A stretch of 53,460 bases of DNA from Acidobacteriota bacterium (GCA_022566415.1 JADFIY010000001.1:1-53460), one strand, 5' to 3'. Shown: positions 13,079 through 53,325, counted from the stretch's first letter. Notes: generated from the sequence alone by a model not told the origin. Numbers and translations are program-made.

Positions 13079-13213
13079 GCACCGATAGGTGACCGGTCGT
13101 CTCGACAGAAGTTGGGCCCCTTACCCGCTTTCGCTGCGTCCTCGGGCCCCTCGGGCCACGGCACCGCAAATGGCCTCACCAAGAAGAAACGGATCGCCCC
13201 CTATTTGCGGAAT
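13079..13213 (+). repeat. Hairpin-repeat family, locus 1 (leader + 1 degenerate unit)
   Basis: Leader GCACCGATAGGTGACCGGTCGTCTCGACAGAAG at 13079-13111. Unit arms are CCGCAAA 13164-13170 and TTTGCGG 13204-13210. It fills the jag-rsmG spacer. Confidence 0.75.
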
Positions 13214-13222
13214 CTCTTCGGC

Positions 13223-13861
13223 ATGTTTCCCGTGAAACATGCCGAAAGCGCGCTGCGGCGGGCTGCCGGCTGGGCGGGGATCGAATTGTCGCCTGATCAA
13301 CTAGATCTGCTTACCCGCTACGCCGAGTGGTTGGTTGTGGAGGCCGTACCTGCTGGCGGGGTTGGACCTGGCGAAGCCGCTCGAATCATCGACCGCCACG
13401 TCGCCGACTCCCTGGTATTCGGGATAGGCTTTGTCGACAACCCACCGGCTACCCTTATCGATGTTGGATCGGGGGTTGGACTACCGGGCATCCCGTTGGC
13501 CATCGCCTATCCGGGGACGGCGGTGACCTTGCTCGATCGTTCGGAGCGGCGTACCCTGCTCGCCGGACGAGCGTTGCGGATCCTCAGTCTGGCCAATGCC
13601 GTTACGGTGCAAGGCGATGTGCGCGATCTCACCAGCACGTATGCCGCGGCCACATTCCGAGCCTCGCTGCCGATCGGAGATGCCCTGGACGCGGCCCGCT
13701 CCACCCTCGACACCGGAGGCACGGCCGTCATCGGGCTCAGTCGCTCACATCCGCCTGCACATACCCCACCAGCTGAACCAGGAGAAACGCTTCAGCTGCT
13801 CGAAACCCCCGAAGGTATCCTTGACTCGCCGGCATGGCACCTTAGGATGACACGCAATTGA
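13223..13861 (+). CDS. rsmG: 16S rRNA (guanine527-N7)-methyltransferase RsmG/GidB
   Basis: SAM motif IDVGSGVGLPGIPLAI. Start at ATG 13223 (MFPVKH); the upstream part of the track ORF is the repeat element. Confidence 0.9.
   Translation: MFPVKHAESALRRAAGWAGIELSPDQLDLLTRYAEWLVVEAVPAGGVGPGEAARIIDRHVADSLVFGIGFVDNPPATLIDVGSGVGLPGIPLAIAYPGTAVTLLDRSERRTLLAGRALRILSLANAVTVQGDVRDLTSTYAAATFRASLPIGDALDAARSTLDTGGTAVIGLSRSHPPAHTPPAEPGETLQLLETPEGILDSPAWHLRMTRN
13224..13239. promoter_or_regulatory. parS centromere-like site (15/16 match to TGTTTCACGTGAAACA)
   Basis: TGTTTCCCGTGAAACA lies within codons 1-6 of rsmG, about 640 nt upstream of parA. Confidence 0.7.
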
Positions 13862-13880
13862 AAGGGTTCTGAGCCTTCAA

Positions 13881-14657
13881 ATGCCAAACGCCACCATTGT
13901 CGCCATCGCCAATCAGAAAGGTGGCGTTGGGAAGTCGACGACCGCCATCAACCTCGGAGCCGGGCTTGCTTTTCAGGGTGAGCGAGTGCTTCTTGTCGAT
14001 CTCGACCCTCAGGGAAACACGACAAGCGGTCTTGGCGTCGACCGCAGCGCCATCAAACAATCCACCTACGATCTCTTGGTCGACGACGTTGCGGCAGAGG
14101 ACGTCATCGAAGCATCCTCGGTCCGCGATCTGTTCTTGGTGCCGGCCACGATTGACCTCGCCGGCGCCGAAATCGAGCTGGTGTCGATGTTTTCTCGAGA
14201 GCATCGTCTGGAGAACGCCCTGAAAACCGTGGTCGACGATTACGATTTCGTGCTGATCGACAGCCCGCCCTCGCTGGGACTGCTCACCATCAATGGCCTT
14301 ACGGCCGCAGACGAAGTGCTGATTCCGATCCAATGCGAGTATTACGCGCTGGAGGGTGTCGGGCAACTCATACGCAACATTCAACTGGTGCAAACCAGCC
14401 TTAACCCTCAACTAGATGTCGAAGGTGTCGTGCTCACCATGTACGACGGGCGCACGACGCTCTCGAAACAGGTCACAAGGGAGGTGCGGGATCATTTTGG
14501 GAAGACGGCATACAAGACGGTGATCCCGAGGACGGTTCGCCTGTCCGAAGCGCCTTCGCACGGTGAGCCGATCGAGGCATACGATCGCATGAACCGTGGT
14601 GCCATCGCGTATCGCGAGCTCGCCAGCGAATTCAGGAGGCGTCATGGCCGCACGTAA
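13881..14657 (+). CDS. parA: Chromosome partitioning ATPase ParA/Soj
   Basis: Deviant Walker A (IANQKGGVGKSTTAINL), 258 aa. Confidence 0.95.
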   Translation: MPNATIVAIANQKGGVGKSTTAINLGAGLAFQGERVLLVDLDPQGNTTSGLGVDRSAIKQSTYDLLVDDVAAEDVIEASSVRDLFLVPATIDLAGAEIELVSMFSREHRLENALKTVVDDYDFVLIDSPPSLGLLTINGLTAADEVLIPIQCEYYALEGVGQLIRNIQLVQTSLNPQLDVEGVVLTMYDGRTTLSKQVTREVRDHFGKTAYKTVIPRTVRLSEAPSHGEPIEAYDRMNRGAIAYRELASEFRRRHGRT

Positions 14658-15501
14658 GAGCGGGCTGGGTCGGGGGTTGGATGCACTGATCCCCGTCGAT
14701 CTCCCGGTCGTCGGCTTCGCCGAGGTCGACATTGCAGCGGTGAAGCCAAATCCGCGGCAGCCTCGGCATCGCTTCGACGATGAGGCGATGGAGGAGTTGG
14801 CGGCCTCGATTCGGGAGGTAGGAGTGCTCCAGCCGATTGTGCTTCGCCCGGGGACCGCCCAGGGCGCCTACGTCCTGGTCGCAGGGGAAAGAAGGTTGCG
14901 GGCTGCGGCGCTTGCCGGGATGTCCAAAATCCCGGCTGTGATCCGGCCGACAAGTAGCGATGAGCGGAACCTCACCGAGGCCCTTATCGAGAACCTACAG
15001 CGAACCGACCTGTCGCCCCTCGAGGAGGCCGCAGCCTTCCAGAGCCTTCTGGAAGATTTTGGCATGACACACGAAAACGTCGCAGACCGGGTCGGGAAGA
15101 GCCGCAGTGCTGTGACCAATACCCTGCGACTCCTGCAGCTGCCACCCGCCATCCAGGGGATGCTGGACCGGGGGGAACTGGCGGCCGGCCATGCCAGAGC
15201 CTTGCTGTCGGTTGATGATCCTGCCTACGCCCTCCACATCGCGCGGCGAGCGGTCGACGAGGGACTGTCGGTCCGAAGTGTCGAAGAAGCAGCGCGGGAG
15301 CGGGCGATTGCCGAGGCGTCACCACCGAGCCGCAGACCCCGCCAAGCTCGGCCCGCCGCCATCATCGAACTCGAGGAGAGACTGACCAATCGGCTGGGCA
15401 CCGAGGTTTCGATCAAGCCAAGGGGCGAAGGCGGCAGGCTCGTGATTCGGTATTCCTCGCTCGACGATCTGGAGCGGATCTACCGGGCGCTGTTCTCCTG
15501 A
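14644..15501 (+). CDS. parB: Chromosome partitioning protein ParB/Spo0J
   Basis: MAARKSGLGRGLDALIP start at 14644, with GERRLRAA and an HTH region. Overlaps the parA stop by 14 nt. Confidence 0.95.
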   Translation: MAARKSGLGRGLDALIPVDLPVVGFAEVDIAAVKPNPRQPRHRFDDEAMEELAASIREVGVLQPIVLRPGTAQGAYVLVAGERRLRAAALAGMSKIPAVIRPTSSDERNLTEALIENLQRTDLSPLEEAAAFQSLLEDFGMTHENVADRVGKSRSAVTNTLRLLQLPPAIQGMLDRGELAAGHARALLSVDDPAYALHIARRAVDEGLSVRSVEEAARERAIAEASPPSRRPRQARPAAIIELEERLTNRLGTEVSIKPRGEGGRLVIRYSSLDDLERIYRALFS

Positions 15502-16460
15502 GGTACTCCGTGGAGGAAGAGCTCGATGACCTCAGCAGCGATCACCTTGCCGGTCGCGCTGGTGAGCAGGTCGGTGGCTACCACCACGGCGGGAGCGCGG
15601 GTCTCACGCAGCATCGGAGTCGCTCTAGCCGCGACGGGTAGCCCGAGCCCGGAGCCGATCGTCTCGGCGAGGACTCGGCCCGCCGGGCTGGAGGACAAAT
15701 CGGTTCCGAAGTAGAAGGCTCCCTCTTCGAACGCGGCGGCGGTGGTGAGGGAGATAACGAGATCGGCGTCGAGGCGGTTGGCCCGCCGAGCGCGAACGTG
15801 CTCTGCCGGAAGAGTATCGATGCTTCGCGACAGCAAGGGCATCGCCCCAGCTTCACGCAATGGTGTGGATGCGCCCATGGCGGCCTGCCACGTCAGGGCT
15901 GCCGAGGGTTCATCGGGGCAGGCAGGGTCGAGGTAGATACGCGCCCCGGCGATCGGGTAAGGCAGCGAGGCGATCCACGCCTGCTCCCGTACGACCTCCC
16001 TGCCACGTTTCGATGTCTCCCTTTGCATGAGGGCGAGTTCCTCGATGACTGCTGCACCTACGATGCCATCCTCCGCCATGCCCCGGTTGTGTTGGAAGTC
16101 GAGGACCGCGCTCAGGGTGGAATGGCCAAATAGGCCATCAACTTTTCCGGCTTCGAACCCCAGCGAGTTGAGCCGCTGCTGCAGATGGGAGATGTCGTCA
16201 CCTCGCATCATCGGGACCCGTCGATACAACATGCGATCCCCGAGGTGGTAGCCGGCATCGACAAGCGCCTGCCAGGTGTCGGGTCCCACGATTCCGTCTT
16301 GTGGCAGCCCCCGGGAGCGCTGAAAGTCGGTGACGGCGGCGACGGTTGTGGCTCCGTAGACTCCCAGAGGGTCAGGATCCGTCCTCTGGCCGAGCGATGT
16401 GAGGCGACGCTGAATGTCTCGAACCGGCTCCCCGCGATCTCCTGCGTGGAACTGTCTCAC
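15480..16460 (-). CDS. cwlM: CwlM-like N-acetylmuramoyl-L-alanine amidase (two PG-binding domains + Amidase_3)
   Basis: Two PG_binding_1 repeats (DIQRRLTSLG..., HLQQRLNSLG...) followed by an amidase_3-like C-terminus. Synteny trxB-trxA-cwlM matches M. tuberculosis Rv3913-3915. Confidence 0.85.
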   Translation of the reverse strand: MRQFHAGDRGEPVRDIQRRLTSLGQRTDPDPLGVYGATTVAAVTDFQRSRGLPQDGIVGPDTWQALVDAGYHLGDRMLYRRVPMMRGDDISHLQQRLNSLGFEAGKVDGLFGHSTLSAVLDFQHNRGMAEDGIVGAAVIEELALMQRETSKRGREVVREQAWIASLPYPIAGARIYLDPACPDEPSAALTWQAAMGASTPLREAGAMPLLSRSIDTLPAEHVRARRANRLDADLVISLTTAAAFEEGAFYFGTDLSSSPAGRVLAETIGSGLGLPVAARATPMLRETRAPAVVVATDLLTSATGKVIAAEVIELFLHGVPQENSAR

Positions 16461-16715
16461 CAGCCCCTCGGTTCGCCGAGAGGCTCCGCAAAAAGCGCGC
16501 GATCGGGTCTGTGTCGGCTACGGCGATTTGCGGAGCCGTGGCCGGAGCGGCCCGCCGCCAAGCGGCGAGAGCGGGAGAGATGGCGCTCCGCAAAAAGCGC
16601 GCGATCGGGTCTGTGTCGGCTACGGCGATTTGCGGAGCCGTGGCCGGAGCGGGCCGTAGCCAGGAGCGGGAAAATGGCTCCACTTCTGTCGAGACGGCCG
16701 GTCACCTAGCGGTGC
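16461..16715 (-). repeat. Hairpin-repeat family, locus 2 (leader + 2 units, period 102 nt), minus orientation
   Basis: Arms GCTCCGCAAA / TTTGCGGAGC occur at 16483-16536 and 16585-16638. The reverse-complemented leader is at 16683-16715. It fills the trxA-cwlM spacer. Confidence 0.88.
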
Positions 16716-16720
16716 GCGCT

Positions 16721-17047
16721 CTAACCGACGAACGAGGCGAGCTCGGCCTCGAGCTGTTTCCTGCTGCGCGCTCCGACGAGTCGCTTCATCTCCTGGCCGT
16801 CCTGGAACACAATCAGGGTCGGGATGCTCATCACGCCATATTGCATGGCGGTTTGCTGGTTTTCATCGACGTTGAGTTTGACGACGTTGAGTTTTCCAGA
16901 CTGCTCTCCGGCGATCTCCTCGAGTGGTCCTTCCATCATCTTGCATGGCCCGCACCACTCCGCCCAGAAGTCGACGAGCGTTGGCGTGGACTCACCGACC
17001 AGTTCGGCAAACGTCGCGTCCGTCGCTTCGATGGTGTTCTTACCCAT
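16721..17047 (-). CDS. trxA: Thioredoxin
   Basis: 108 aa with the WCGPC active site. Confidence 0.95.
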   Translation of the reverse strand: MGKNTIEATDATFAELVGESTPTLVDFWAEWCGPCKMMEGPLEEIAGEQSGKLNVVKLNVDENQQTAMQYGVMSIPTLIVFQDGQEMKRLVGARSRKQLEAELASFVG

Positions 17048-17095
17048 GAGTTCTCCTTGTTTAGACGTACAAGAGGTTGAACCGTAACCCGGTCG

Positions 17096-18025
17096 TCAAA
17101 CTTCCCAAGCTTCTAGCAGTCGCTCCGCGTCCAACGCCGCCTCGCATCCCATCCCGGCGGCGGTTACTGCCTGCCGGTATACGTGGTCGATCACGTCGCC
17201 GGCGGCGAAGACCCCTTCGACCGAAGTCTTGGTAGTACCCGACTCGGTGACGATGTACCCGCCCTTGTCGAGCTCGAGCTGGTTCTGGAAGAAACCGGTA
17301 TTCGGATCATGCCCGATGGCGACGAACACACCGTCGACCGCTAATTCCGATCGTTCCCCAGTCTCGGTGTTGTTGAGACGGACGCCGGTGACCAACTCAT
17401 CGCCGAGCACCTCGACGACCTCGCTGTTCCATACGACGTCGACCTTCGGGTTGTCCAGGACTCGCTGCGCCATGATCTTGGAGGCACGGAACTCGCCACG
17501 TCGGTGAACGATCGTGACCTTTGAGGCGAACTTCGTGAGGAAGCTCGCCTCCTCCATCGCGCTGTCGCCGCCCCCGACAACGGCCAGATCCTTATCGCGG
17601 AAGAAAAACCCGTCACAGGTCGCGCAGGCGGAAACGCCATAGCCGCGGAGACGGTGCTCCCCCGGAACGTCGAGCCATCGCGCTGAGGCGCCGGTGGACA
17701 CGATCAGCGTCTCGGCCTCGTAGAGGTCCTGGCCGACCCACACCTTGAACGGTCGCTCGGATAGGTCGACGGTGGTGATATCCGACGAAATGATTTTCGT
17801 ACCGAACCGCTCCGCCTGCTTGCGCATCGCCTCCATGAGCTCAGGCCCCATGATGCCGTCGGGAAATCCCGGGTAGTTCTCAACGTCGGTGGTGAGCATC
17901 AGCTGACCGCCGCGCTCGAAACCCTCGATCATCACCGGGGCCAGATCGGCGCGCGCTGCATAGATCGCCGCGGTCAGACCCGCGGGACCCGACCCGAGGA
18001 TGAGAACCTTTTCTGTCACTGTCAC
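17096..18025 (-). CDS. trxB: Thioredoxin-disulfide reductase
   Basis: [16 protein letters not shown], the CATCDG redox centre and an NADPH motif. The likely start is GTG 18025 (GTGA overlap with the upstream stop) or GTG 18019; the 374-aa track ORF is over-extended. Confidence 0.93.
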
Positions 18026-18327
18026 TCCTGGCCCGTCTCGTCGTCTTTGGGAAAGCGTCGTATCCAGAGCAACGCTCCGACCACGATGAGTATGCCCCCG
18101 GTGATGGCGTAGGCCACTTCCTGACCGACAAGCTCGCCAAAGGCCCGGAAGAAGGCGACGAGCAGCCAGATGGTGACGAGGCCGCCGATGGTGGCGAACA
18201 ACAAACCGAACGCAGTCCATGTGATAGACCGCTCTGCCCGGTCGACCGTGAGCGACCGGATCTTGATCGCGAACGATTCAATCAAGTCTGCGATTTGCGC
18301 GGGGTAATCGCCGTCCTGGTTCGCCAT
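18022..18327 (-). CDS. Small two-TM membrane protein (actinobacterial holin-X/DUF1469-like)
   Basis: 101 aa with two hydrophobic helices ([24 protein letters not shown] and [18 protein letters not shown]). Translationally coupled to trxB. Confidence 0.6.
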
Positions 18328-18357
18328 GCGGGCGAGGTTAGTCCGGGCCGAACTTGG

Positions 18358-19206
18358 TCACGGTCCTGCCGACGTCACCCGGCACGTTGTGAGGTCGACG
18401 ATGATCACGGTCTCGGCGCCGGTGTTGGCATCGGTGATGACCACGACCACGTTGTCGCCGGTCACCGAGAGCGTGCCAACCAGCACAGCCTCGCCGATCA
18501 CGCTGTCGGCGGAGCCGAAGCACCCGGCAGCAGCGTCGTAGTCGATCGTCGCCCTTGCGGTGGAGTTGAGAGCGGCATTCTCGACGCCATCGGCGGCGAA
18601 ATCGTCTCTCAGCACAGGCAGCTCGAGTTCACCAGACGCGTCCGTCGTTTGTGCCAGCGAGTACAGCATGGCATCGGGTTCTGCGGTTTCGGCGGCGACC
18701 GCTGTGGTCGGAGTCGGCTCTTGGACCCGCTGCTCCTCGGCTGAGTCTTCGGCTATGCCGCCGAGGGGATCAGCCTCCAGCGAAGGAGCCGCGGCGGCTG
18801 CGGTCGTCCGCGGCGCCGGTGCGCCGGCAAGATCGGCAGCGTCCTCACCACCGAATGTGCCGGGTAGAACGACGACCGCGGTGACGATCACGGCCGCGGT
18901 GGCAAGACCGGCGAGCGGTGCCCACCACCGGCTCCACCTTCGGGTGGGAGCGGCAACCGGCGCTACTCCGGTTTTGTCGTCGAGGAACAACCCGGCCCTC
19001 AGCGCACCGTGGAGTTCGTCGCGCTCGGGGGCGGTCATCGATACCGCGAGGGCGGACCGCAGTGCGGTCGACACCGCGAGCTGCTCGTCGTAGGCGGCTT
19101 TCATCTCGGCGTCGATCTCCAAGCGAGCGCGTACGTCTGCCTGCTCGGCGGGGGAGAGCGCCCCGTCGAGCAAGGCGACGATCAGATGGCGGTCGCTGTC
19201 GTTCAT
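18358..19206 (-). CDS. Anti-sigma factor (single TM, Ala-rich extracytoplasmic part)
   Basis: The N-terminus LLDGALSPAEQADVRARLEIDAEMKAAYDEQ is typical of anti-sigma domains. A TM segment follows WWAPLAGLATAAVIVTAVVVL. 4-nt overlap with the sigma gene. Confidence 0.65.
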   Translation of the reverse strand: MNDSDRHLIVALLDGALSPAEQADVRARLEIDAEMKAAYDEQLAVSTALRSALAVSMTAPERDELHGALRAGLFLDDKTGVAPVAAPTRRWSRWWAPLAGLATAAVIVTAVVVLPGTFGGEDAADLAGAPAPRTTAAAAAPSLEADPLGGIAEDSAEEQRVQEPTPTTAVAAETAEPDAMLYSLAQTTDASGELELPVLRDDFAADGVENAALNSTARATIDYDAAAGCFGSADSVIGEAVLVGTLSVTGDNVVVVITDANTGAETVIIVDLTTCRVTSAGP

Positions 19207-19778
19207 GGTTCCTTGTTTGGATGCGTTGGAGGGGGAGCGAGGTTCCCGAGTTCTTTTGCTAATAGGCGTCTGGCACGAAACACTCTGCTTTTGACCGTCC
19301 CGATCGGCACTCCGAGGGTATCGGAGGCCTCCTGTAGCGACATGCCTTCGAGGTCGACGAGAATCGCCGCCGCGCGAAACTCGGGTGCGATGCTTTGCAG
19401 GGCGCGCTCGATATCGGGCCGAAGCTCGACGGCGCCGATGGCATCTCCGCTTCTTGGATCAGGCGGGTCGAGGTGCTCGGGCATCGCCTCGGTTCGCTTG
19501 CGTTTGTTACGTCGGAGGTGGTCGTAGCAGGTGTTGACGGTCACCCGGTACAGCCATGTGCTGAACGCGGCTTGTTCTCGATAACGATCGACTTTGCGAA
19601 ACACGGTGAGGAAGACGTCCTGAGTGGCATCGAGCGCAGACTGGCGGTCGCGCAGCATGCGGAGGCATATGGAGAACACCCGGCCCTCGTGAGCTGCCAT
19701 GAGAGCCTCGAACGCGTCGGAATCGCCTGCCAAATAGCGGCGGATCAGATCGCGGTCTTCTGCGGAACGGCCGGTCAT
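19203..19778 (-). CDS. ECF RNA polymerase sigma factor (SigM-like position)
   Basis: Region 2 (DATQDVFLTVF, FSTWLYRVTVN) and region 4 (SLQEASDTLGVPIGTVKSRVFRAR). Confidence 0.9.
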   Translation of the reverse strand: MTGRSAEDRDLIRRYLAGDSDAFEALMAAHEGRVFSICLRMLRDRQSALDATQDVFLTVFRKVDRYREQAAFSTWLYRVTVNTCYDHLRRNKRKRTEAMPEHLDPPDPRSGDAIGAVELRPDIERALQSIAPEFRAAAILVDLEGMSLQEASDTLGVPIGTVKSRVFRARRLLAKELGNLAPPPTHPNKEP

Positions 19779-19868
19779 TGCGAGTGATTCTCGCGCAGCC
19801 GAGTGGCCGAGTCGCGGTGCGGCCCAGTCGCTGTGTAGATCTGGTGATCGTTGGTAGCCGGTGGCCGG

Positions 19869-21155
19869 CTACGGGATCAGGGAGACGCTCCAGATCTCTG
19901 CAGCGAAGGTGCCGTCAGACTGCTCCGGAAGGTGGGTGAGCCAGATGAGCCAGGCACCCTCCGCGGTGGGAACCTGGTGCCGCGTGATCCCGGTGAGCAG
20001 CGTCCCTGATCCGGCTGGCTGCCAACCGTCGTAGGTTGGTTGGGGCTCCGTTGCCCATGCCAGCATGTAACGCGTATCGCGAGAGCCTGAGATTTCGATG
20101 GCCGAGATCGGGCCATCGGCGGTGAGTACGAGGCCTACGCCTGCCTTTGTATCGGGCAGCGGGCCCGGGTAGCGCTCCGTTTGCCAACTCGTTCCCCGGT
20201 CGCCATCGAGTACGGCCTCGGCATCGTCGTTGTTCTCCGCACCGTCCCCGAGTGGGTCGTAGGCGATTGCGGTTGCTGCCACCGATTGATCGACGGGTGC
20301 CTCGACGATCGGAATTGTCGTCGTCGGCGAGGTCGGTTCCCGCTCCGAAGAAGCGGCCGGATAGAGGAAGGGTGAATCCGGATCGATGTCGAGCCGAAGG
20401 CCAAGGGCGGCGAGCACGACGATCGCGACCACGATCGCGGCGAAGGCGAAGAGGCCGCGCGGGGACCAGGCCACCCGAGGCTCCTGACGCGGCGAGAACG
20501 GGATGGCGCGGAGGGCGGCGGCGAGTCCGGCAGCGTCGAGAGAGCCGGCGGCCGCCGCGGTCAACGCCTCGTCCACGGACCCCGGCAACCCTTCGGCCAC
20601 CTGGGACGGGAGCACCCAGGGATTGTCGCTGCCGGTGATGGCGGTGCGTAGCACGTGAGCAAGGGCGACGGTGTCCTCTTCCTGGGTCGAGGTGGTCGGG
20701 ATCCGGCCGAAGCCAGCGAGACGGGCTGGATGGGCGGCGGAGAAGTGGATGGCGGCGGCATCGATCGCCCCGTGGATCCCACCGTTGGCGTGAAACGCGG
20801 AGAGCCCATCGGCGAGGCCCGCTGCATTCGGGAGGTATTCGGCGACCGGAATGGTTTCTCCCACCTTGAGACGGTCGGCGACGGTTACCGCCCCATCCCA
20901 CTCAGCGACGGCAAAGGCGGAGCCGTGGAACTCGCCGGCGGCGAAGACCTTCTGGACGTGCTGATGGCTCGTGGCCGCCGCGGCGCGCACACCCTTCAAG
21001 AAGCCATCCATGCGGTCGGGGGTACCGGCGGGACCGGGGAACCGGATGAGGACCGGTCGTTCCAGTTGCTCGTCCGTCGCCAGCCACTCCTCGACATCAC
21101 CGTCCGAGCCGAGTCTGACGTTGAGCCGGTAGCGCTCTGGTAGGCGTGGCGGCAT
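19869..21155 (-). CDS. Stand-alone pseudokinase + TM + extracellular domain protein (like the C-terminal half of mycobacterial MviN/MurJ Rv3910)
   Basis: Kinase-like fold but no glycine loop. VLIRF stands in place of VAIK, and HGAIDAAAIHF in place of HRDLKPxN. One TM (GLFAFAAIVVAIVVLAALGL), then a ~150-aa extracellular domain. Confidence 0.7.
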   Translation of the reverse strand: MPPRLPERYRLNVRLGSDGDVEEWLATDEQLERPVLIRFPGPAGTPDRMDGFLKGVRAAAATSHQHVQKVFAAGEFHGSAFAVAEWDGAVTVADRLKVGETIPVAEYLPNAAGLADGLSAFHANGGIHGAIDAAAIHFSAAHPARLAGFGRIPTTSTQEEDTVALAHVLRTAITGSDNPWVLPSQVAEGLPGSVDEALTAAAAGSLDAAGLAAALRAIPFSPRQEPRVAWSPRGLFAFAAIVVAIVVLAALGLRLDIDPDSPFLYPAASSEREPTSPTTTIPIVEAPVDQSVAATAIAYDPLGDGAENNDDAEAVLDGDRGTSWQTERYPGPLPDTKAGVGLVLTADGPISAIEISGSRDTRYMLAWATEPQPTYDGWQPAGSGTLLTGITRHQVPTAEGAWLIWLTHLPEQSDGTFAAEIWSVSLIP

Positions 21156-21161
21156 AGGAGT

Positions 21162-21920
21162 TCAGCTCCGGCGAAACACCGTGAGGGATTCAGGCTGAGT
21201 GACGAACCCCTCTGATGCGTAGAGCCGAATCGCTGCTTCATTTTCCTGTTGGGTGTTCAACACCATCGCCCGCGTTCCTGCCGTTCGTGCCACCCGGACC
21301 GAAGCGCGCACCAAAGAGCGGCCCATGCCGGAGCGTTGCCAGTCGGGGTGAACGGCAAGGCGCTGCAGGTAGGAGATGGCATGCCCGAGGCCGATGACCG
21401 CGTACGCCACCGGGTCGGCCTCGGGTCCGCGGATGGTCAGCGTTCTGGCATTGCTGGTCGCGTTGATCGCCTCCTCGAGACCGACCCGGTCAAACTGCCA
21501 GAAATCGTCGAATGCGACGTGATCGATGCGAAGAAGGTCATCGAGGACCACGTCGTCCGAGACGACGGGGTGGTTCGGCGCGGGCACCGGTTGTGCCAAC
21601 TCGAGACGCATCAGTGTCAGAGGGACCGACCGCTGGTATCCGACAGACTCCCACTTCCTGGCCGCGCCCGAGCCCAGGGGCGGGGAAAGCACAGACGGAG
21701 CTCCGTTGGCGATGAGCCAGGCGGTGCACGCGTCCAGGAAGGAAGCACCCCCTCGAACGATGCGCAAGTTGGCATCGGGCGTCCTGTCGTTCCATGGGCG
21801 CGCGTCTGCCCGAGCCCAACCACGTCGTAGCCGGATCGGCCCCGGCCACCGGCCGCGCTGCTGCACGGGCGGTGCGCTCTCCGTAACCGACATTTTCCCT
21901 CCACGGTGACCAGCAGACAC
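21162..21920 (-). CDS. GNAT-family N-acetyltransferase (start uncertain)
   Basis: C-terminal acetyl-CoA motif LQRLAVHPDWQRSGMGRSLV and ...NEAAIRLYASEGF. Confidence 0.75.
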   Translation of the reverse strand: MSAGHRGGKMSVTESAPPVQQRGRWPGPIRLRRGWARADARPWNDRTPDANLRIVRGGASFLDACTAWLIANGAPSVLSPPLGSGAARKWESVGYQRSVPLTLMRLELAQPVPAPNHPVVSDDVVLDDLLRIDHVAFDDFWQFDRVGLEEAINATSNARTLTIRGPEADPVAYAVIGLGHAISYLQRLAVHPDWQRSGMGRSLVRASVRVARTAGTRAMVLNTQQENEAAIRLYASEGFVTQPESLTVFRRS

Positions 21921-21962
21921 GGGCAGCGTACCGGCGACCGTGGGGTGTGAGACGGTTCCCCA

Positions 21963-22025
21963 AGTGCGTGTTACGTATCACGTTCCACGTATCACGTATC
22001 ACGAACGACGTACCGCGTAATACGT
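21963..22025. repeat. Nine phased heptamers NNNNCGT in the GNAT / deacetylase divergent spacer
   Basis: AGTGCGT GTTACGT ATCACGT TCCACGT ATCACGT ATCACGA ACGACGT ACCGCGT AATACGT in one register. Confidence 0.8.
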
Positions 22026-22081
22026 GGACTCATGATTCTGGACTCCCGACTCTCGGCGCGGACCCTGCAAGGATGCGGCCG

Positions 22082-23095
22082 ATGCGGGTCGCACTCGTCA
22101 CCCATCCTTCGAGTTTCGACCACGTGCCGACGCCGGGCCATCCGGAGCGCCCCGAGCGGGTGATAGCCGCCGTCGACGGCGTGGTCCGGTCTGGCCTCGC
22201 CGTTGTGGAGGTCGATGCAGATCCCGCCACCCAAGCTGACCTGGTTGCCATTCACGACGAAGCGTTCATGTCCGCACTCGAGCGTCTGTGCGCAGAGGGA
22301 GGCGGCAGCATCGATGCCGACACCTACGCTTCCCCTGGCTCGTGGGACGCCGCCGTCAACGCCGCCGGCGCCGGTGCCACCGCGGTCCGGAGCCTCGAAG
22401 CCGGGGCGGCCGACGTGGGGTTCGTTGCCATGCGTCCCCCAGGGCATCACGCCGAAGCCGACCGAGCCATGGGCTTCTGCATGCTCAACAATGTGGCGGT
22501 GACCGCAGCCAAGCTGGCGGCCTCGGGACAACGGGTGGCAATCGTCGACTGGGACGTTCACCACGGCAACGGCACCCAGGCGATTTTCGCTGCGAACCCC
22601 GATGTCTTGTACGCATCGATACATCAGTACCCCTTCTATCCGGGCACCGGATGGAGCGACGAGATCGGCGAAGGTGCAGGGACGGGCGCCACCGTCAACA
22701 TCCCCGTGCCCGGGGGTGCCGACGGAGCCATCTACGAGGAGGCTTTCGCCAGGGTCATCGTCCCGATTGTCCAGCAGTTCGGCCCAGGCTGGCTTCTGGT
22801 GAGTGCGGGATACGACGCACACATCGCCGATCCGCTCGCCGATATCCGCCTGGTCGATGATGACTTTGCGATGATGGCTTCTGCGCTGGCGCCGTTGCCG
22901 CCTGCCGGACGAACCGTTTTCTGGCTCGAAGGAGGTTACGACCTGGATGCCATCGGCGACTCGGTTTCCGCCACTCTTCGCGGGCACGCCTACCCGTCAC
23001 CTGGTCTCCGATTCTCAGGCAGCGCAAGCGAATCCGCCGATCATGCCGTGGATCGGGCAGTTGAGGCGCTTTCACCGTATTGGGATGTCGTTTAA
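22082..23095 (+). CDS. Histone deacetylase-family (AcuC/arginase-fold) deacetylase
   Basis: HPERPER, RPPGHHA and DWDVHHGNGTQ motifs. ATG 22082 is preceded by AAGGA. Confidence 0.9.
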   Translation: MRVALVTHPSSFDHVPTPGHPERPERVIAAVDGVVRSGLAVVEVDADPATQADLVAIHDEAFMSALERLCAEGGGSIDADTYASPGSWDAAVNAAGAGATAVRSLEAGAADVGFVAMRPPGHHAEADRAMGFCMLNNVAVTAAKLAASGQRVAIVDWDVHHGNGTQAIFAANPDVLYASIHQYPFYPGTGWSDEIGEGAGTGATVNIPVPGGADGAIYEEAFARVIVPIVQQFGPGWLLVSAGYDAHIADPLADIRLVDDDFAMMASALAPLPPAGRTVFWLEGGYDLDAIGDSVSATLRGHAYPSPGLRFSGSASESADHAVDRAVEALSPYWDVV

Positions 23096-23128
23096 GCCCT
23101 TGCCGGAGCAGGCCGATACCGAAACTGT

Positions 23129-24256: not shown

Positions 24257-24260
24257 GAGC

Positions 24261-24600: not shown

Positions 24601-24641
24601 ACCGCGATCGGCGGTCCGAACGCCGGTACCCTCCCCGGGCG

Positions 24642-42176: not shown

Positions 42177-42185
42177 CCTGAGCAA

Positions 42186-42436: not shown

Positions 42437-42883
42437 ATGGCAACCCGACTGCTGGCGCTGGTTTTCGTGGCGGCCACCGTTGTCGCGTGCACTGGATCGT
42501 CGGCGCCCACCCTGGCGGGTTTGACTTCAACCACCATCTCCATCGACAACAACGAGCTCACCGTGGCCGTTGCCGATACCCCGCAGGCTCGCGGCCGGGG
42601 GTTGATGGGCATCACCGACCTCGGTGAGTTCGACGGCATGCTGTTCGTGTTCGATACCGACGTCGAAACCGGGTTCTGGATGAAGGACACGCTGATCCCG
42701 CTCGACATTGCCTTCTTCGATGCCGACGGGCTGGCCGTGGACCGGCTGCGCATGGAGCCATGCACCGCCGACCCGTGCCCGACGTACAACGCGGCGGGTC
42801 CGTACCGGTTCGCCGTCGAAGCCCTTGCTGGTGACCTGAGCTTTGTCGGTGAAGGTTCGGTGTTGGCTCTGCTAGATGAGTAG
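42437..42883 (+). CDS. DUF192-family lipoprotein
   Basis: Lipobox VVAC, then GLMGITDLGEFDGMLFVF...WMKDTLIPLDIAF, typical of DUF192. Start at ATG 42437. Confidence 0.8.
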   Translation: MATRLLALVFVAATVVACTGSSAPTLAGLTSTTISIDNNELTVAVADTPQARGRGLMGITDLGEFDGMLFVFDTDVETGFWMKDTLIPLDIAFFDADGLAVDRLRMEPCTADPCPTYNAAGPYRFAVEALAGDLSFVGEGSVLALLDE

Positions 42884-42960
42884 CGAAATAGCGAAGTAGC
42901 CCAGTAGCCCAGTAGCGAAGGAAGACACTGATCTACTGATCTACTGATCTACTGGATGTA
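42881..42960 (+). repeat. Ten phased octamers starting with the DUF192 stop codon
   Basis: TAGCGAAA TAGCGAAG TAGCCCAG TAGCCCAG TAGCGAAG GAAGACAC TGATCTAC TGATCTAC TGATCTAC TGGATGTA, a single 8-nt register over 80 nt. Confidence 0.88.
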
Positions 42961-44875: not shown

Positions 44876-46234
44876 GTGACGAGCGTTGCCGAACGCCCAG
44901 CAGCTCGGACGCTGCAAGTTCCCCCACACAGCGTTGAAGCGGAAGAGTCGGTCCTCGGTGCTGTGCTGCTGTCGGCGGAGGCCGCCAACATTGCTCTCGA
45001 GAAGCTGCACGGCGAGGATTTCTATCGACCCGCCCATCAGCAGGTTTTCGAGGCGGTCCAGGGGTTGTTCGATGAGAACGAGCCGATCGATGCGGTGACG
45101 GTGTCCGAAGTTCTGCGGCGCGACGGCTCCCTGGAACTCATGGGAGGCATCGATTTCCTCACCCGACTGCTCGATGCGGTGCCGACGACCTCCAACATCG
45201 ATTACTACGCCGACATCGTCGAGGAGCATGCGCTGCGGCGTCGTCTGATTCGGGTCGCAGGAACCATCGGCTCGATCGCAGGGGAAATGCAGGAGCCGAT
45301 CGCCGACGTGCTCGATCGCTCGGAGCAGGAGATCTTCCTCGTTTCGGAGCGGCGGGTTGGCGCCGGCCTCGCCTCCATCGACCCGCTGCTTGGCCCCGCC
45401 ATCGAGAAGGCGGAGGAGCTCCAGCGGCTCGGTGAAGAGGTGACCGGCATACCTACCGGCTTCCGGGACCTCGACCGGAAGCTCGCAGGGCTGCACCCGA
45501 CCAACCTGTTGATCGTGGCGGCCAGGCCGGGCATGGGAAAGACAGCACTTGTGCTGAACATCGCCCAAAACGTTGCCCTCCAGGGCAAACCGGTGGCGAT
45601 CTTCTCCCTGGAGATGAGCCGCGAGGAAATCGTATCGCGGATGTTGTGCGCGGCGGGCAGGATCGATTCGCAGCGACTCCGCACCGGGCACCTGACCGAG
45701 TCGGACTTCACCAAGCTGTCCAACGCGGCCAGCCAGCTGTACAAGAAGCCGATTTTCGTTGACGACTCTCCAGGGCTCACCGTGACCGAGATCCGGGCCA
45801 AGTCGAGGCGGCTCCGCCGCCGCCCCGGGCTGGGGCTTGTGATCGTCGACTATCTGCAACTGATGCACGGCTCGGGCGGTGAGAACCGGCAGCAGGAGAT
45901 CGCGCTGATATCGCGGTCGTTGAAGAACCTGGCGCGCGAGCTGGAGGTTCCCGTCATTGCCGTGTCTCAGCTCAACAGGGCGCTGGAACAGCGTGAGGAC
46001 AAACGGCCACGGCTCGGCGATCTTCGTGAGAGCGGGGCTTTGGAGCAGGATGCCGACGTGGTGATGTTCATCTACCGCGACGAGTACTACAACCCGGACA
46101 AGGTGGAGTCCAAAGGGATTGCCGAGGTCGTTATCGCCAAGCACCGGCAGGGTGCGGTGGGGAAGGTCGCGATGACCTTCCTCCCCGAGTTCACCCTGTT
46201 TGCCGACATGGGGAGGGACGTCCCGGTTGCTTAG
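44876..46234 (+). CDS. dnaB: Replicative DNA helicase DnaB
   Basis: PPHSVEAEESVLGAVL, Walker A ARPGMGKTA and IVDYLQLM. GTG start, no intein. Confidence 0.95.
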   Translation: MTSVAERPAARTLQVPPHSVEAEESVLGAVLLSAEAANIALEKLHGEDFYRPAHQQVFEAVQGLFDENEPIDAVTVSEVLRRDGSLELMGGIDFLTRLLDAVPTTSNIDYYADIVEEHALRRRLIRVAGTIGSIAGEMQEPIADVLDRSEQEIFLVSERRVGAGLASIDPLLGPAIEKAEELQRLGEEVTGIPTGFRDLDRKLAGLHPTNLLIVAARPGMGKTALVLNIAQNVALQGKPVAIFSLEMSREEIVSRMLCAAGRIDSQRLRTGHLTESDFTKLSNAASQLYKKPIFVDDSPGLTVTEIRAKSRRLRRRPGLGLVIVDYLQLMHGSGGENRQQEIALISRSLKNLARELEVPVIAVSQLNRALEQREDKRPRLGDLRESGALEQDADVVMFIYRDEYYNPDKVESKGIAEVVIAKHRQGAVGKVAMTFLPEFTLFADMGRDVPVA

Positions 46235-46280
46235 CCTCGCCTCGATCGCGAGCCAACGGTTCGCGACTCTAGCTATGGGC

Positions 46281-46620
46281 GCGCACGATAGGTGACCGGT
46301 CGTCTCGATATATGTACAGCGATTTTGCCCGCTCTTGCCGCTTCGCGCCCGCCCGGGCCCCGGCTCCACAAATGACCTCACCGACACGCGGACCTGATCG
46401 CTCCGTATTTGCGGAGCGCCATTTTTCCGCTCTTGGCTACGGCCCGTTCGGGCCACGGCTTCGTAAATTGGCCTCGCTGACAGAGACCGGGTCGCGCCGT
46501 ATTTTGCGGAGCGCCATTTTTCCGCTCTTGCTGTTTCGCAGCGGGCCGCTCGGGCCCCGGCTCCGCAAAATTGGCCTCGCCGACAAGAAGCTGGATCGCG
46601 CCGTATTTTGCGGAGCCTCC
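46281..46620 (+). repeat. Hairpin-repeat family, locus 5 (leader + 3 diverged units, periods 95 and 102 nt)
   Basis: Leader GCGCACGATAGGTGACCGGTCGTCTCGATA at 46281. The 5' arms are at 46362, 46457 and 46559. The 3' arms TTTGCGGAGC are at 46408, 46503 and 46607. Confidence 0.9.
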
Positions 46621-49951: not shown

Positions 49952-50022
49952 AGCGGGTGAGGGGAATCGAACCCCCGTATTCAGCTTGGGAAGCTGATGT
50001 TCTGCCATTGAACTACACCCGC
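49952..50022 (-). tRNA. tRNA-Gly (anticodon CCC), CCA not encoded
   Basis: Manual cloverleaf: acceptor GCGGGTG/CACCCGC, D stem GTTC/GAAC, anticodon stem TCAGC/GCTGA with loop TTCCCAA, T arm GGGGG-TTCGATT-CCCCT. Length 71 nt. Confidence 0.93.
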
Positions 50023-51410: not shown

Positions 51411-53198
51411 ATGCAGACCTATACGGCCCCCGGCGAACAACCGGTCGAACCCGGAGACAATCCGGTGTCGCTCCTCGTGGAGCGAGCAACCCACCATCCG
51501 GATTCCATCGCGTTGAGCTATCGCGTTGCCGAGGGCTTCCTACCGATCACCAGCGCCGAGATGCTCGCCAGCGTCAAGGAACTCGCCGCCGGGCTGCTGG
51601 CACTCGGCGTCCAGAAAGGTGACAGGGTCGCCCTGTTCACCTCGACCCGATACGAGTTCACCCTGCTCGATTACGCCATATGGGCCGCAGGTGCGGTCAC
51701 GGTGACCATCTACGACACCTCGTCCGCAGAGCAGGTCGAGTGGATCGTGGGCAACTCGGAATCAACGGTGCTCGTCTGTGAGACGCCGGCGATGAAGGCG
51801 ATCTATGACGAGGTCGCCGAACGCCTCCCTTCGTGTCGCCATGTGTTGGTTATCGAGGACGGGGGGTTGGCTCAGTTGTCCGAGGCGGCGACTGATCTGC
51901 TGCGCAACGAGGTGGAGCGACGGATCGGCGAGATCGACCACGGCGACCTCGCCACCCTGATCTACACTTCGGGGACAACGGGCCGTCCCAAGGGTTGCAT
52001 GCTCACCCACGGCAACCTCGCCTTCGAGCTGATCCAACTCGAGGTCAGAGTCCCCGCGTTGTTGCGCGAGGGGGAACGGACGTTGCTGTTTCTTCCCTTG
52101 GCTCACATTGCGTCGCGGGTCATCCAAATCGGCTGTGTGTCTCGCGGCGTCGAGATCGCCTATGCCTCTTCGGTTGACGCCCTGGTCGAGGAACTTTCGA
52201 TGGTCCGGCCTTCCTGGCTATTCGCCGTGCCAAGGGTCTTCGAGAAGATCTACAACGGTGCAACGCAGAAGGCGCATGCCGAGGGCAAAGGAGCGATCTT
52301 CGACCGGGCGGCGAACGTGGCCATCGCCTATTCGGAGGGCATTGCTCGTGGCAAGATTGGTGTCCTCACCAAGATCCAACACGCCTTGTTCGACCGCCTG
52401 GTGTACGGCAAGCTGCGCGCAGTCTTCGGCGGCGAGCTCGTGTATTCGATTTCGGCAGCTGCGCCCCTCGGGGAGCGGCTCGGGCATTTCTTCAGGGGGA
52501 TAGGGCTCACTCCGATCGAGGCGTACGGGCTGACCGAGACAACCGGGGCATCGAACAGCAATGGCACCGACTTCCAGAAGATCGGGACCGTGGGACGTCC
52601 GCTCCCCGGGGTAGCCATCGGGATCGCCGATGACGGGGAGATCATGATCAAGGGCGGTTGCGTCATGGCCGGTTATTGGAGGAACGATGCTGCCACCGAG
52701 GAAGCCATCGACCCAGACGGATGGTTCCACTCCGGCGACATCGGCGAGTTCGACGAGGACGGGTTCCTGCGGATCACCGGCCGCAAGAAGGAGCTCATCA
52801 TCACAGCAAGCGGGAAGAACGTCGCTCCAGCGGTGCTCGAGGACAGGCTGCGGGCCGACTCGCTGGTGAGCCAATGCATGGTCGTCGGCGATGCCCGACC
52901 GTTCATCGCCGCCCTGGTAACGATCGACGAGGAGGCACTTTTGGTGTGGGCGGAGGCGAACGGCAAGGACGGGGTCAACCTGGAGGACCTGATCGACGAT
53001 CCCGATCTTGTTACTGCCATACAGACGGCAATCGACGAGGCCAACAAGGCGGTGTCGCGCCCAGAGTCGATCCGTACCTTCCGAATCCTCCCTCATGACC
53101 TCACCATCGAGAACGGCGCTCTGACCCCGACACTCAAGGTGAAGCGGTCTGTGGTCTTGGAGGAGTACGCCAACGTCGTCGACGAGATATACGGGTAG
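51411..53198 (+). CDS. Long-chain acyl-CoA synthetase (AMP-forming, FadD15-like)
   Basis: AMP-binding motif YTSGTTGRPKG, plus GYGLTET and GWFHSGDIG. GGAGG lies 7 nt upstream of ATG 51411. Confidence 0.9.
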   Translation: MQTYTAPGEQPVEPGDNPVSLLVERATHHPDSIALSYRVAEGFLPITSAEMLASVKELAAGLLALGVQKGDRVALFTSTRYEFTLLDYAIWAAGAVTVTIYDTSSAEQVEWIVGNSESTVLVCETPAMKAIYDEVAERLPSCRHVLVIEDGGLAQLSEAATDLLRNEVERRIGEIDHGDLATLIYTSGTTGRPKGCMLTHGNLAFELIQLEVRVPALLREGERTLLFLPLAHIASRVIQIGCVSRGVEIAYASSVDALVEELSMVRPSWLFAVPRVFEKIYNGATQKAHAEGKGAIFDRAANVAIAYSEGIARGKIGVLTKIQHALFDRLVYGKLRAVFGGELVYSISAAAPLGERLGHFFRGIGLTPIEAYGLTETTGASNSNGTDFQKIGTVGRPLPGVAIGIADDGEIMIKGGCVMAGYWRNDAATEEAIDPDGWFHSGDIGEFDEDGFLRITGRKKELIITASGKNVAPAVLEDRLRADSLVSQCMVVGDARPFIAALVTIDEEALLVWAEANGKDGVNLEDLIDDPDLVTAIQTAIDEANKAVSRPESIRTFRILPHDLTIENGALTPTLKVKRSVVLEEYANVVDEIYG

Positions 53199-53199
53199 G

Positions 53200-53220
53200 G
53201 GAGTCGCCTGCGGCGACTCC
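53200..53220 (+). terminator. Perfect 9-bp stem / 3-nt loop hairpin 2 nt after the acyl-CoA ligase stop (no U-tract)
   Basis: GGAGTCGCC tgc GGCGACTCC. Confidence 0.45.
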
Positions 53221-53245
53221 GTGTTACGTATTACGAGTCGGACCT

Positions 53246-53325
53246 GAGTGACCGGTCGTCTCGGCAGAAGTGTGGAGCAATTTCTCCCGCTCTCGGCTAC
53301 CCCCCGCTGGGGCCCCGGCTCCGCA
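53246..53325 (+). repeat. Hairpin-repeat family, locus 6 (leader + truncated unit lacking the 3' arm)
   Basis: GAGTGACCGGTCGTCTCGGCAGAAG, then GTGGAGCAATTTCTCCCGCTCTCGGCTACCCCCCGCTGGGGCCCCGGCTCCGCA. No TTTGCGGAGC follows. Confidence 0.65.

Follow-up and report, generated by a model that had tools for sequence, protein, structure and literature searches.

Six intergenic hairpin-repeat loci in a bacterial genome segment are probably fixed copies of a non-autonomous transposable element

Results

Six repeat loci in the window

The window, by which we mean the whole stretch of 53,460 nt of DNA that was analysed, comes from an actinobacterium that is uncultured and probably Acidimicrobiia-like. 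It carries six copies of a dispersed repeat family, here called loci A to F (Table 1). According to Pfam the neighbours are Jag/R3H and RsmG at locus A, a thioredoxin and a PG_binding protein at B, a T2SSE ATPase and RNase H at C, PanB and a DUF192 protein at D, and DnaB and an EamA protein at E. A six-locus family had already been proposed in the initial annotation, and nhmmer searches with one unit and one leader as queries bore this out: exactly six loci with a total of 11 full units and 6 leaders were found where they had been described, and none elsewhere in the window. The E-values of the full-element profile range from 1e-36 to 8e-13 across the loci, and the six elements add up to about 1.4 kb (2.6% of the window).

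Table 1. Repeat loci and unoccupied target sites in the window
Feature	Position	Strand	Upstream gene (stop codon)	Downstream gene	Make-up and remarks
Locus A	13073-13216	+	jag (13064-13066)	rsmG (ATG at 13223)	leader + 1 unit; full-profile E=3e-36
Locus B	16480-16721	-	trxA (TAG)	cwlM	leader + 2 units
Locus C	24257-24599	+	PilT-like ATPase gene (TGA, 24254-24256)	RNase H gene	leader + 3 units; begins right behind the stop
Locus D	42180-42412	+	panB (42174-42176)	DUF192 gene	shortened leader + 2 units; 3 nt past the stop
Locus E	46277-46619	+	dnaB (46232-46234)	EamA transporter gene	leader + 3 units; separate hairpin at 46246-46266 intervenes
Locus F	~53235-53335	+	acyl-CoA ligase gene (53196-53198)		decayed leader + half unit; profile positions 19-102, E=8e-13; hairpin at 53200-53220 intervenes
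Empty target site	34667-34669				TCA; filled in relatives L175 and L195
Empty target site	15499-15501		parB (TGA stop)		filled in relative L241

It had also been stated that each copy lies just after a stop codon. All copies are indeed close to a stop; elements E and F, however, begin 42 nt and about 36 nt away from it, each behind a separate hairpin. At locus B the first G of the element (16721) doubles as the last base of the trxA stop codon, and the triplet TTA is found at 16722-16724 on its 5' side. In the output of some gene callers, rsmG runs on through element A.

Structure of the element

The basic element of about 146 bp has the form 5'-GAGCGCGCACC...GCGGAGCCTC-3'. Its 5' end is a leader of about 45 nt, GAGCGCGCACCGATAGGTGACCGGTCGTCTCGACAGAAGTGGAGCC, whose sequence is a diverged version of a unit's 3' half. 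In the core, ATTTTCCCGCTC is followed by an optional GCCGC-TTC-GCGGC mini-hairpin and by GGGCCGCTCGGGCC. The main hairpin has a 12-bp stem, GGCTCCGCAAAT-(~30 nt)-ATTTGCGGAGCC, and its 3' arm continues into the 3' terminus ...CTC. Core and hairpin together form the repeated module, which is present in 1 to 5 copies per array and exists in two subtypes with or without the small hairpin; its length of about 85-103 bp is not confined to multiples of three. From A to F the leader is accompanied by 1, 2, 3, 2, 3 and about 0.5 units, the element at F having retained the leader and the 5' part of one unit and lost the 3' arm. Arrays reach up to about 530 bp. No transposase ORF is present within any copy, and one reading frame is open, but over the element's own length only.

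Both the tandem units and the conserved hairpin that had been noticed by eye are real. Tandem Repeats Finder recovered the 3-unit arrays with periods of 103 and 95, and the arm pattern GCTCCGCAAA-N20-45-TTTGCGGAGC gave five perfect matches in the window versus none in 100 shuffles. Each of the remaining window units has at least one arm mismatch. In the hairpins, 94.7% of the cells are paired, and five pairs show double changes compared to 1.5 in shuffles. An Rfam search of the whole window at gathering thresholds yielded no match in the repeats, in agreement with the view that the sequence lies outside the named RNA families, and a tRNA at 49952-50022 was the sole match. A permissive Rfam scan of locus C returned only matches with E>3.

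Presence, absence and unit number in relatives

About 0.85 Mb (853 kb) of related DNA in 131 loci was sampled and found to contain 276 units, 121 leaders and 189 arrays; the non-redundant arrays number 109. The commonest layout is a leader followed by 1-5 units, single-unit copies being the most frequent form. Relatives with about 87-94% DNA identity share the positions of the window copies. L242 and L243 have no element between jag and rsmG, where the spacer is only 6 nt long, and none is present between trxA and cwlM in L241 and L242, whose spacers there measure 55 and 25 nt, respectively. Two sites that are unoccupied in the window are filled in relatives. At 34667, L175 carries 1 unit and L195 3 units with TTA/TTA flanks, antisense to both neighbouring genes; in L241 the element sits exactly at the parB-stop site with the flanks TGA and TCA. 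A further filled/empty pair is given by L203 (...GACG TAA, element, TAA ACTAGCC) and L135 (...GGCG TAA ACTGGCC).

Relatives also differ in how many units they carry at a given locus, in line with the VNTR behaviour envisaged initially. Orthologous sites were seen with 1 versus 3, 3 versus 5 and 2 versus 3 units: a one-unit array free of gaps occupies the site of locus C in L118, the site of locus D harbours 3 units in L152 and 2 units without leader in L188, and that of locus E 5 units in L188 and 3 units in L208. For locus B, further assemblies of the species from which the window comes show between 2 and at least 4 units, with scaffold gaps. In L132, L168 and L225 whole elements are arranged in tandem, exactly 3 bp apart.

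Target sites and termini

Both termini are present in 31 non-redundant arrays; the 3-nt flanks are identical in 10 of these, whereas permutation predicts 3.4 (P~1e-4). The matching flanks are TAA/TAA (5), TTA/TTA (4) and CTA/CTA (1), and TAA/TTA cross pairs did not occur. The duplicated triplets seen are TTA, TAA, CTA and TGA, with C enriched before and G after them. The flanks are non-identical in two-thirds of the arrays, and an intact duplication is found at none of the six window copies. We read the arrays with unequal flanks and the six window copies as old copies; the flanking triplets TCA and TTC of locus A are a decayed duplication.

The 853 kb contain 82 unoccupied CTWAG sites, of which 16 are located at stop codons, 30 in intergenic and 36 in coding DNA (coding DNA accounts for 84% of the sequence); the G+C content of the host genome is 63%. 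Of the 109 arrays, 34 have a stop codon that overlaps the duplication or a terminus, 14 at the 5' end and 20 at the 3' end. When the terminus GAGCGCGCACCGATAGG is anchored against the reverse complement GAGGCTCCGCAAATAGG, 10 of 17 positions agree (GAG... and ...ATAGG), and a local alignment of the two element ends was no better than that of shuffles. The strong inverted repeat is instead an internal-to-3'-terminal one, with a perfect repeat of 12 bp.

Orientation and gene context

In the window each of the six copies has the orientation of its upstream gene, and five lie between co-directional genes, as the initial annotation had claimed. With random orientation the chance of six sense copies out of six is 1/64. 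The further claim that the orientation always follows the upstream gene did not hold for the family. For the 109 non-redundant arrays the context was derived from gene calls of our own codon-model caller, with a Pfam check on a sample. Between co-directional genes 33 arrays are sense and 26 antisense (28 versus 26 when the window is left out), and in five antisense cases both flanking genes were verified by Pfam. Convergent contexts outnumber divergent ones (23 versus 8), whereas the background consists of 109 convergent and 120 divergent gene pairs. The closeness to 3' gene ends is real. Of the two biases on which the earlier reading had been staked, proximity to stops is therefore present and a bias in orientation is absent; some lineage-specific retention bias toward sense copies may exist in the lineage of the window.

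Discussion

The best explanation, to which we assign a probability of about 80%, is that a non-autonomous MITE with a tandem-amplified internal hairpin module inserted at the six loci long ago and became fixed there. The element is non-coding and in its basic form well below the MITE size limit of about 500 bp; it has a target-site duplication and occurs in dispersed, polymorphic copies. Its weak terminal inverted repeats speak against this reading. Insertions go in either orientation, overwhelmingly at gene 3' ends, and the stop codon is often inside the duplication. Neither the sampled loci (about 0.85 Mb) nor the plasmid collection contained an autonomous IS with the same ends. No transposase gene with matching ends was found in the sampled DNA either. 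Judged by the 3-bp duplication of a TNA-type target, the enzyme is probably a member of the IS5 family (IS1031/IS427-like).

A transposase supplied in trans would cut TNA with a 3-bp stagger. TNA triplets, as well as the preferred CTWAG context, would be rare in a genome of 63% G+C and concentrated at stop codons and spacers, and insertions within genes would be purged. Both termini appear to read G...C outward, so that the junction would rebuild TA+G, TAA or TGA and the host gene would retain its stop. Arrays could grow or shrink through unequal recombination, or slippage, of the repeated segments that contain GGAGCC. As a second route, the element may insert again into its own duplicated target, as suggested by whole elements in tandem with a spacing of exactly 3 bp. 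The hairpins would be transcribed passively as part of operon mRNAs.

We considered several alternatives. First, the operon copies could be exapted RNA elements, that is intercistronic or 3'-UTR hairpins whose unit number tunes the downstream gene, for instance as partial terminator, attenuator, RNase barrier or processing site. This is compatible with a transposon origin, and we regard it as rather unlikely. The window copies are all sense, lie between or after genes, are old and have kept their positions in relatives; family-wide, antisense copies are nearly as frequent as sense copies between co-directional genes. At internal unit junctions a T5 run follows 3-4 nt after the hairpin (GCGGAGCGYCATTTTTCCC), but such a run is absent from the last unit and from all single-unit copies. 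A scan for the intrinsic-terminator consensus in window positions 12900-25000, which include arrays A, B and C, gave no site within the arrays, and these arrays, with a main hairpin loop of about 30 nt, do not have the make-up of intrinsic terminators. The array folds more stably than shuffles (z = -2.6), and the stems show a few compensatory changes. Inverted repeats that serve one transposase as two binding sites would, however, be expected to show such changes just as well, and RNAalifold yielded no covariation term.

Second, the repeats could be of the REP/BIME or REPIN type, palindromes which are mobilised as single-stranded hairpins by a RAYT (an IS200/IS605-like tyrosine transposase) and whose units alternate in orientation as in E. 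coli BIMEs. Like these, the window family is extragenic and found at gene 3' ends, its hairpins are conserved and its loops variable, and the arms GCTCCGCAAA and TTTGCGGAGC alternate along tandem arrays with two alternating spacers, pairing being possible either way. REP elements have no target duplication and require a tyrosine HUH transposase; HUH/Y1 transposition is known to proceed without target duplication. The duplications and clean empty sites in relatives, the inclusion of the non-palindromic leader of about 45 nt in the mobile unit and the absence of the conserved GTAG/CTAC tetranucleotide make this reading highly unlikely, and none of the copies in the sampled loci has a RAYT-like gene next to it.

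Third, the initial annotation had drawn a parallel to MIRUs, which are described as co-oriented with operons and as having overlapping small ORFs. The repeats would then be an intercistronic minisatellite that arose in place within operons, co-oriented with them and possibly coupling neighbouring genes by small ORFs. An actinobacterial host, tandem units of about 85-103 bp (MIRUs belong to the 40-100-bp class), short intercistronic spacers, VNTR behaviour and the sense orientation of all window copies speak for this, as do the open frame of the element and the gene calls running through element A. MIRUs have, to our knowledge, neither bounding target duplications nor a distinct leader. The window family, in contrast, moves as a block: leader and units come and go as one, together with a 3-bp duplication, and duplications, empty sites and presence/absence polymorphism are hallmarks of a transposon which MIRUs are not known to show. 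Furthermore, single-unit copies are the commonest form, the unit length is free of a multiple-of-three constraint, and family-wide the copies are orientation-neutral, with copies antisense to operons and 23 between convergent genes. The empty-site and orientation data largely refute the MIRU-like reading as a full explanation, and we give it very little credence.

Finally, mis-assembled or chimeric arrays, as runs of N and differing unit counts in other assemblies of the same species might suggest, can practically be dismissed, as the same loci and flanks occur in at least seven independent assemblies and many metagenomes, point changes distinguish the units of one array, and diverged units occupy the same sites in diverged relatives.

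As a probable MITE the element adds to a familiar class of selfish DNA and does not represent a new kind of system. With the IS1031 and IS427 groups of IS5 and with PIF/Harbinger-Tourist elements it shares a 3-bp T-N-A duplication in a C-TWA-G context, and this duplication and target are the basis of its probable assignment to IS5. The IS5 family comprises the bacterial relatives of eukaryotic PIF/Harbinger elements, and maize PIF has the target CWCTTAGWG and a TTA duplication. Among actinobacterial ISs, the IS1031 group of IS5 is described as having a three-nucleotide target (PMC2516522).

Correia elements (CREE/NEMIS) of Neisseria and ERIC resemble the window family in being non-coding, multicopy sequences of 100-200 bp with short A/T-rich target duplications; they are likewise intergenic, able to form long hairpins and present or absent depending on the strain, and their co-transcription with the neighbouring genes (PMC10969869) would apply to the window family as well. 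Correia elements have good terminal inverted repeats of 26 bp and a TA duplication, whereas the window family has weak terminal repeats and a 3-bp TNA duplication. They are also mostly placed upstream of genes (review PMC10969869), in contrast to the 3' ends and stop codons occupied by the window family, and the tandem amplification of an internal module is a further difference. The BrickBuilt MITE of Porphyromonas gingivalis consists of a leader, a tandem minisatellite and a tail (PMC4596501) and thus resembles the window family in its overall layout as well as in intergenic dispersal and variable unit number. Its units are 23 nt long and devoid of hairpins, its host belongs to the Bacteroidota, and it is found 49-591 nt away from coding sequences (PMC4596501), whereas the window family has hairpin modules of about 85-103 nt and abuts stop codons.

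A consequence for the host would arise if the fixed sense copies in the housekeeping operons, i.e. those in jag-rsmG, trxA-cwlM, pilT-like-rnhA, panB-DUF192 and dnaB-eamA, had been domesticated as intercistronic RNA modules, forming a MITE-borne VNTR attenuator, which we consider unlikely. In that case each extra hairpin-plus-U5 unit would lower read-through or change mRNA decay, and the unit number, which varies from strain to strain, would be a heritable rheostat for the downstream gene.

Structure of the repeats and size of the family

All six stretches of the window share a common plan, read by eye, with a leader of ~45 nt (consensus GAGCGCGCACCGATAGGTGACCGGTCGTCTCGACAGAAGTGGAGCC) and behind it one to three units, each about 85-103 nt long. 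In order, the parts of a unit are ATTTTCCCGCTC, the small hairpin GCCGC-TTC-GCGGC (optional), GGGCCGCTCGGGCC, the dinucleotide AC, the arm GGCTCCGCAAAT, a semi-variable loop of ~30 nt, and the arm ATTTGCGGAGCC. The element starts with GAGCGCGC and ends with GGAGCCTC; successive units are joined by one of two junctions, GGAGC-GCC-ATTTTT or GGAGCCTC-TGG-(G)TTTCCC. With nhmmer 11 units and 6 leaders were found in the window, and a full-element profile also recovered exactly the six loci grouped as one family in the initial annotation, without any further match. The names given there to the neighboring genes agree with Pfam. The perfect-arm pattern matched five times in the window versus zero times in shuffles. 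A CRISPR-like reading (conserved repeat and variable loop) was dropped, since the loops are near-identical inside one array, that is, one leader with its units, and vary only between loci. Two short, G+C-rich hairpins between stop codon and element, TCGCGA-N9-TCGCGA after dnaB and GGAGTCGCC-TGC-GGCGACTCC after the acyl-CoA ligase gene, may belong to the respective genes as terminator-like structures, behind which the element inserted.

Metagenomes scanned for a 24-nt core pattern yielded at least 119 loci, and a scan of public genomes with a 16-nt pattern, which is unspecific and gave mostly chance matches, at least 12 genuine loci from three MAGs. The sample for profile searches comprised 131 loci (0.85 Mb). 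In these listed loci 276 units and 121 leaders were arranged in 189 arrays, most commonly as a leader with one (64), two (25), or three units (13) and with five units at most. Matches to only the leader or only the 3' part are internally deleted remnants. A search of a plasmid collection for the element gave two short chance matches only, and a search of the literature for its sequence words gave incidental primer fragments only.

Evidence for transposition

The repeat family is a transposon. In an alignment of the flanks, T-T/A-A typically stands before the 5' end, in many cases as part of C-TWA-G, and the same triplet follows the 3' end (...GCGGAGCCTC). Identical 3-nt flanks were present in 10 of the 31 non-redundant arrays with recognizable termini, compared with 3.4 expected by permutation (P~1e-4). 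The matching pairs were TAA/TAA (five), TTA/TTA (four), and CTA/CTA (one); a TAA-TTA pairing was never seen among the 31 arrays. A duplication of TA only, as in IS630/mariner-like elements, was rejected, since the third base co-varies between the flanks and TTA- and TAA-type copies would need different ends.

For the identification of empty sites both flanks of each array were joined and sought in the other loci. The cleanest pair is GACG-TAA-[element]-TAA-ACTAGCC in one sampled locus (L203) versus GGCG-TAA-ACTGGCC in another (L135). More distant relatives (L241, L242, and L243) were found via their DnaA proteins. Downstream of trxA, the element-free spacer is 55 nt in L241 (79% DnaA identity) and 25 nt in L242 (73%), and in L242 and L243 6 nt separate jag from rsmG. 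Two sites of the window are thereby seen in their ancestral state. Two other sites are empty in the window and filled in relatives (see table). In L241 the jag-rsmG spacer is ~240 nt long and contains a leader-like stretch, GGCCCGTCTCGGCAGACG, below profile recognition; this stretch may be the heavily decayed remnant of a copy inserted where the window has its copy after jag. The six window copies are read as old insertions, because none retains an intact duplication and they are common to relatives of 87-94% DNA identity.

Coordinates of sites and features in the window and in sampled public loci (L-numbers)
Feature	Sequence	Position	Remark
Empty site	window	34667-34669	filled in L175 and L195, element between TTA and TTA
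Empty site, parB stop	window	15499-15501	filled in L241, element between TGA and TCA
jag-rsmG spacer	L241	6670-6914	leader-like stretch
Hairpin after dnaB	window	46246-46266	before element
Hairpin after acyl-CoA ligase gene	window	53200-53220	before element
Open frame through element	window	13073-13861	also in gene calls of L118-L120
Array after trxA	L116-L121	~10330-10850	N runs, differing apparent unit number
Array after PilT-like gene	L120	~2470-2660	N runs, differing apparent unit number
23-nt tandem repeat	window	53375-53424	2.2 copies, just downstream of the decayed copy after the acyl-CoA ligase gene
ACAGCC hexanucleotide repeat	window	12400-12453	jag coding region, probably low-complexity linker
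Second dispersed repeat	window	42880-42955	directly after DUF192 gene stop
Second dispersed repeat	L076	140-470	same kind of structure inside a MITE copy
Second dispersed repeat	L126	~9830-10290	
Second dispersed repeat	L112		5' flank
Second dispersed repeat	L150	7573-7727	3' flank
gyrA	window	1570-3993	807 aa, without intein
gyrA	L242/L243	16113-19796	1227 aa, intein and LAGLIDADG domain

Other repeats of the window are listed as well. Among these is a second dispersed intergenic repeat, which is built from a pair of short-period tandem arrays, (GTAGCNNN)n and (CTGATCTA)n, each the reverse complement of the other (CAGTAG / CTACTG).

Orientation and proximity to stop codons

Gene calling relied on codon log-odds, with long ORFs from the sampled loci as the training set; this caller was chosen over a GC3-only finder, by which jag, rsmG, parB, and the RNase H gene went undetected. 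The context was counted for 109 non-redundant, non-edge arrays. Between co-directional genes 33 arrays lie in sense and 26 in antisense orientation; 23 arrays lie between convergent and 8 between divergent genes. The same DNA contains 109 convergent and 120 divergent gene pairs, so that both arrangements are about equally frequent. In five antisense cases that were checked, all 10 flanking ORFs had clear Pfam domains on the called strand. The proposal that the orientation follows the upstream gene is correct for the window, where six of six copies are sense, but not for the family, in which 28 sense arrays stand against 26 antisense arrays when the window is left out. The all-sense pattern of the window is therefore a small-sample or lineage effect and not a family property. 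An orientation rule drawn from six copies thus fell once about a hundred were examined, which calls for caution in scanning.

The reported closeness to 3' gene ends and stop codons holds across the 109 arrays. In 28 arrays the 5' end lies at most 20 nt from the stop codon of a gene with the same orientation, and in 40 the 3' end lies at most 20 nt from the stop codon of a gene on the other strand. Physical overlap of a stop codon with the duplication or the terminal base occurs in 34 arrays, at the 5' end in 14 and at the 3' end in 20. The triplets found duplicated are TAA, TGA, and the complements of both, or else TTA/CTA, which read TAG together with the terminal G/C of the element. CTWAG is very rare (82 free sites in 853 kb); 20% of the free sites overlap stop codons and 37% are intergenic, yet 84% of the DNA is coding. 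A transposase with a preference for TNA/CTWAG would land disproportionately on stop codons and in short spacers, and insertions within genes would be lost. With G as its first and C as its last base, the element would restore the host stop codon in either orientation; trxA (GGT-TA|G) is one example and the PilT-like gene (TGA|GAG) another.

Maintenance of the hairpin

Since the RNAalifold consensus was unconvincing, pairs were counted on a hand-drawn structure with four helices in 38 single-unit copies; the RNAalifold covariation term was zero. In these copies 94.7% of the helix cells are paired, and double changes were found at 5 pairs, the majority of them in the main hairpin, versus 1.5 pairs in shuffles. 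One subfamily has the arms GGATCAGCGGAT/ATCCGCTGATCC. These counts show that the inverted repeat is maintained, which fits a hairpin of RNA or single-stranded DNA and two binding sites for the same protein alike. The fold of the three-unit array is somewhat more stable than that of shuffled sequences (z = -2.6), and a scan of window positions 12900-25000 for terminators and promoters found nothing inside the arrays after jag, trxA, and the PilT-like gene. That old sense copies were exapted for regulation in this lineage is improbable, and no result of this analysis speaks for it.

Growth of the arrays

The number of units differs between relatives: one in L175 and three in L195 at a shared site, three in the window and five in L188 at dnaB, and two in the window and three in L152 at panB. 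Moreover, L132, L168, and L225 contain tandem whole elements with exactly 3 bp between them. We infer two routes of array growth. First, arrays could grow by unequal recombination or slippage between repeated GGAGCC segments; second, the element could re-insert into the C-TNA-G target regenerated at its own end.

Unit counts also differ between same-species assemblies, but these counts are unreliable and were given less weight as proof of VNTR behavior because of N gaps inside several arrays and possible repeat collapse. Differences between relatives are more reliable because the units themselves have diverged. Since the arrays break short-read assemblies and leave N gaps inside, the unit counts of the window may be underestimates. 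Since one frame of the element is free of stop codons, some gene callers carry rsmG through the copy after jag. The rsmG product (GidB) is called as 255 aa instead of 212 aa in some assemblies; the 255-aa form is an annotation artefact of the insertion.

Relation to known elements

No transposase gene was found in the sampled DNA (131 loci, ~0.85 Mb). A scan for an autonomous IS, with GAG...CTC ends at a distance of 0.5-3.5 kb and TNA flanks that match, had a single match, over ordinary operon genes of L045, an unrelated chance-match locus labeled Dormiibacterota. The two termini form a weak inverted repeat, with matches at 10 of 17 positions (not significant). By its 3-bp TNA duplication and its CTWAG context, the element is probably an IS5-family derivative. 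Target and duplication also resemble those of PIF/Harbinger. A three-nucleotide target has been described for the IS1031 group in a survey of actinobacterial IS (PMC2516522).

The likeness to mycobacterial MIRUs suggested initially was not borne out: obligate co-orientation and origin in place, as MIRUs would require, were both tested and both fail. REP/RAYT systems leave no duplication, in contrast to the element, and no Rfam family matches, as had been anticipated. The element behaves like the bacterial MITEs of a review in which actinobacteria are unmentioned (PMC10969869), and BrickBuilt (PMC4596501) is a precedent for the layout of leader, units, and tail. The element is thus an addition to the known MITE class.

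Host organisms

The gene calls of the window show the orders gyrA-gyrB-recF-dnaN-dnaA and yidC-jag-rsmG-parA-parB, further a cwlM-like gene, trxA, trxB, and anti-sigma and sigma factor genes, and rpsF-ssb-rpsR-rplI-dnaB. In comparison with Mycobacterium this is a typical actinobacterial origin region. The G+C content is 63%, and DnaA homologues with 63-73% identity are labeled Actinomycetota or Acidimicrobiia by their sources. The hosts are probably uncultured Acidimicrobiia-like actinobacteria.

Several MAGs bearing the element are titled 'Kiloniellales' and 'Acidobacteria', namely those with L241 (CAXMOP010000045.1, assembly GCA_964195155.1), with L007, L065, and others (CAXMPL01), and with L012, L060, and L076 (JACZST01). 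These labels look wrong, or the bins mixed, because L241 shows the gene order of an actinobacterial origin region and its DnaA shares 79% identity with that of the window. The gyrA genes of the window and of the relatives with 73% DnaA identity are listed in the table.

Implications

The repeats represent a previously undescribed MITE family of uncultured, probably Acidimicrobiia-like, actinobacteria with two modestly interesting traits, stop-preserving insertion and an internally amplified hairpin module. Unit number and presence or absence of copies could be used as strain markers in metagenomes. With target triplets that are stop codons and G...C termini that rebuild them, a selfish element would come to lie just after the stop without any role in gene expression, a simple mechanistic account for a functional-looking pattern.
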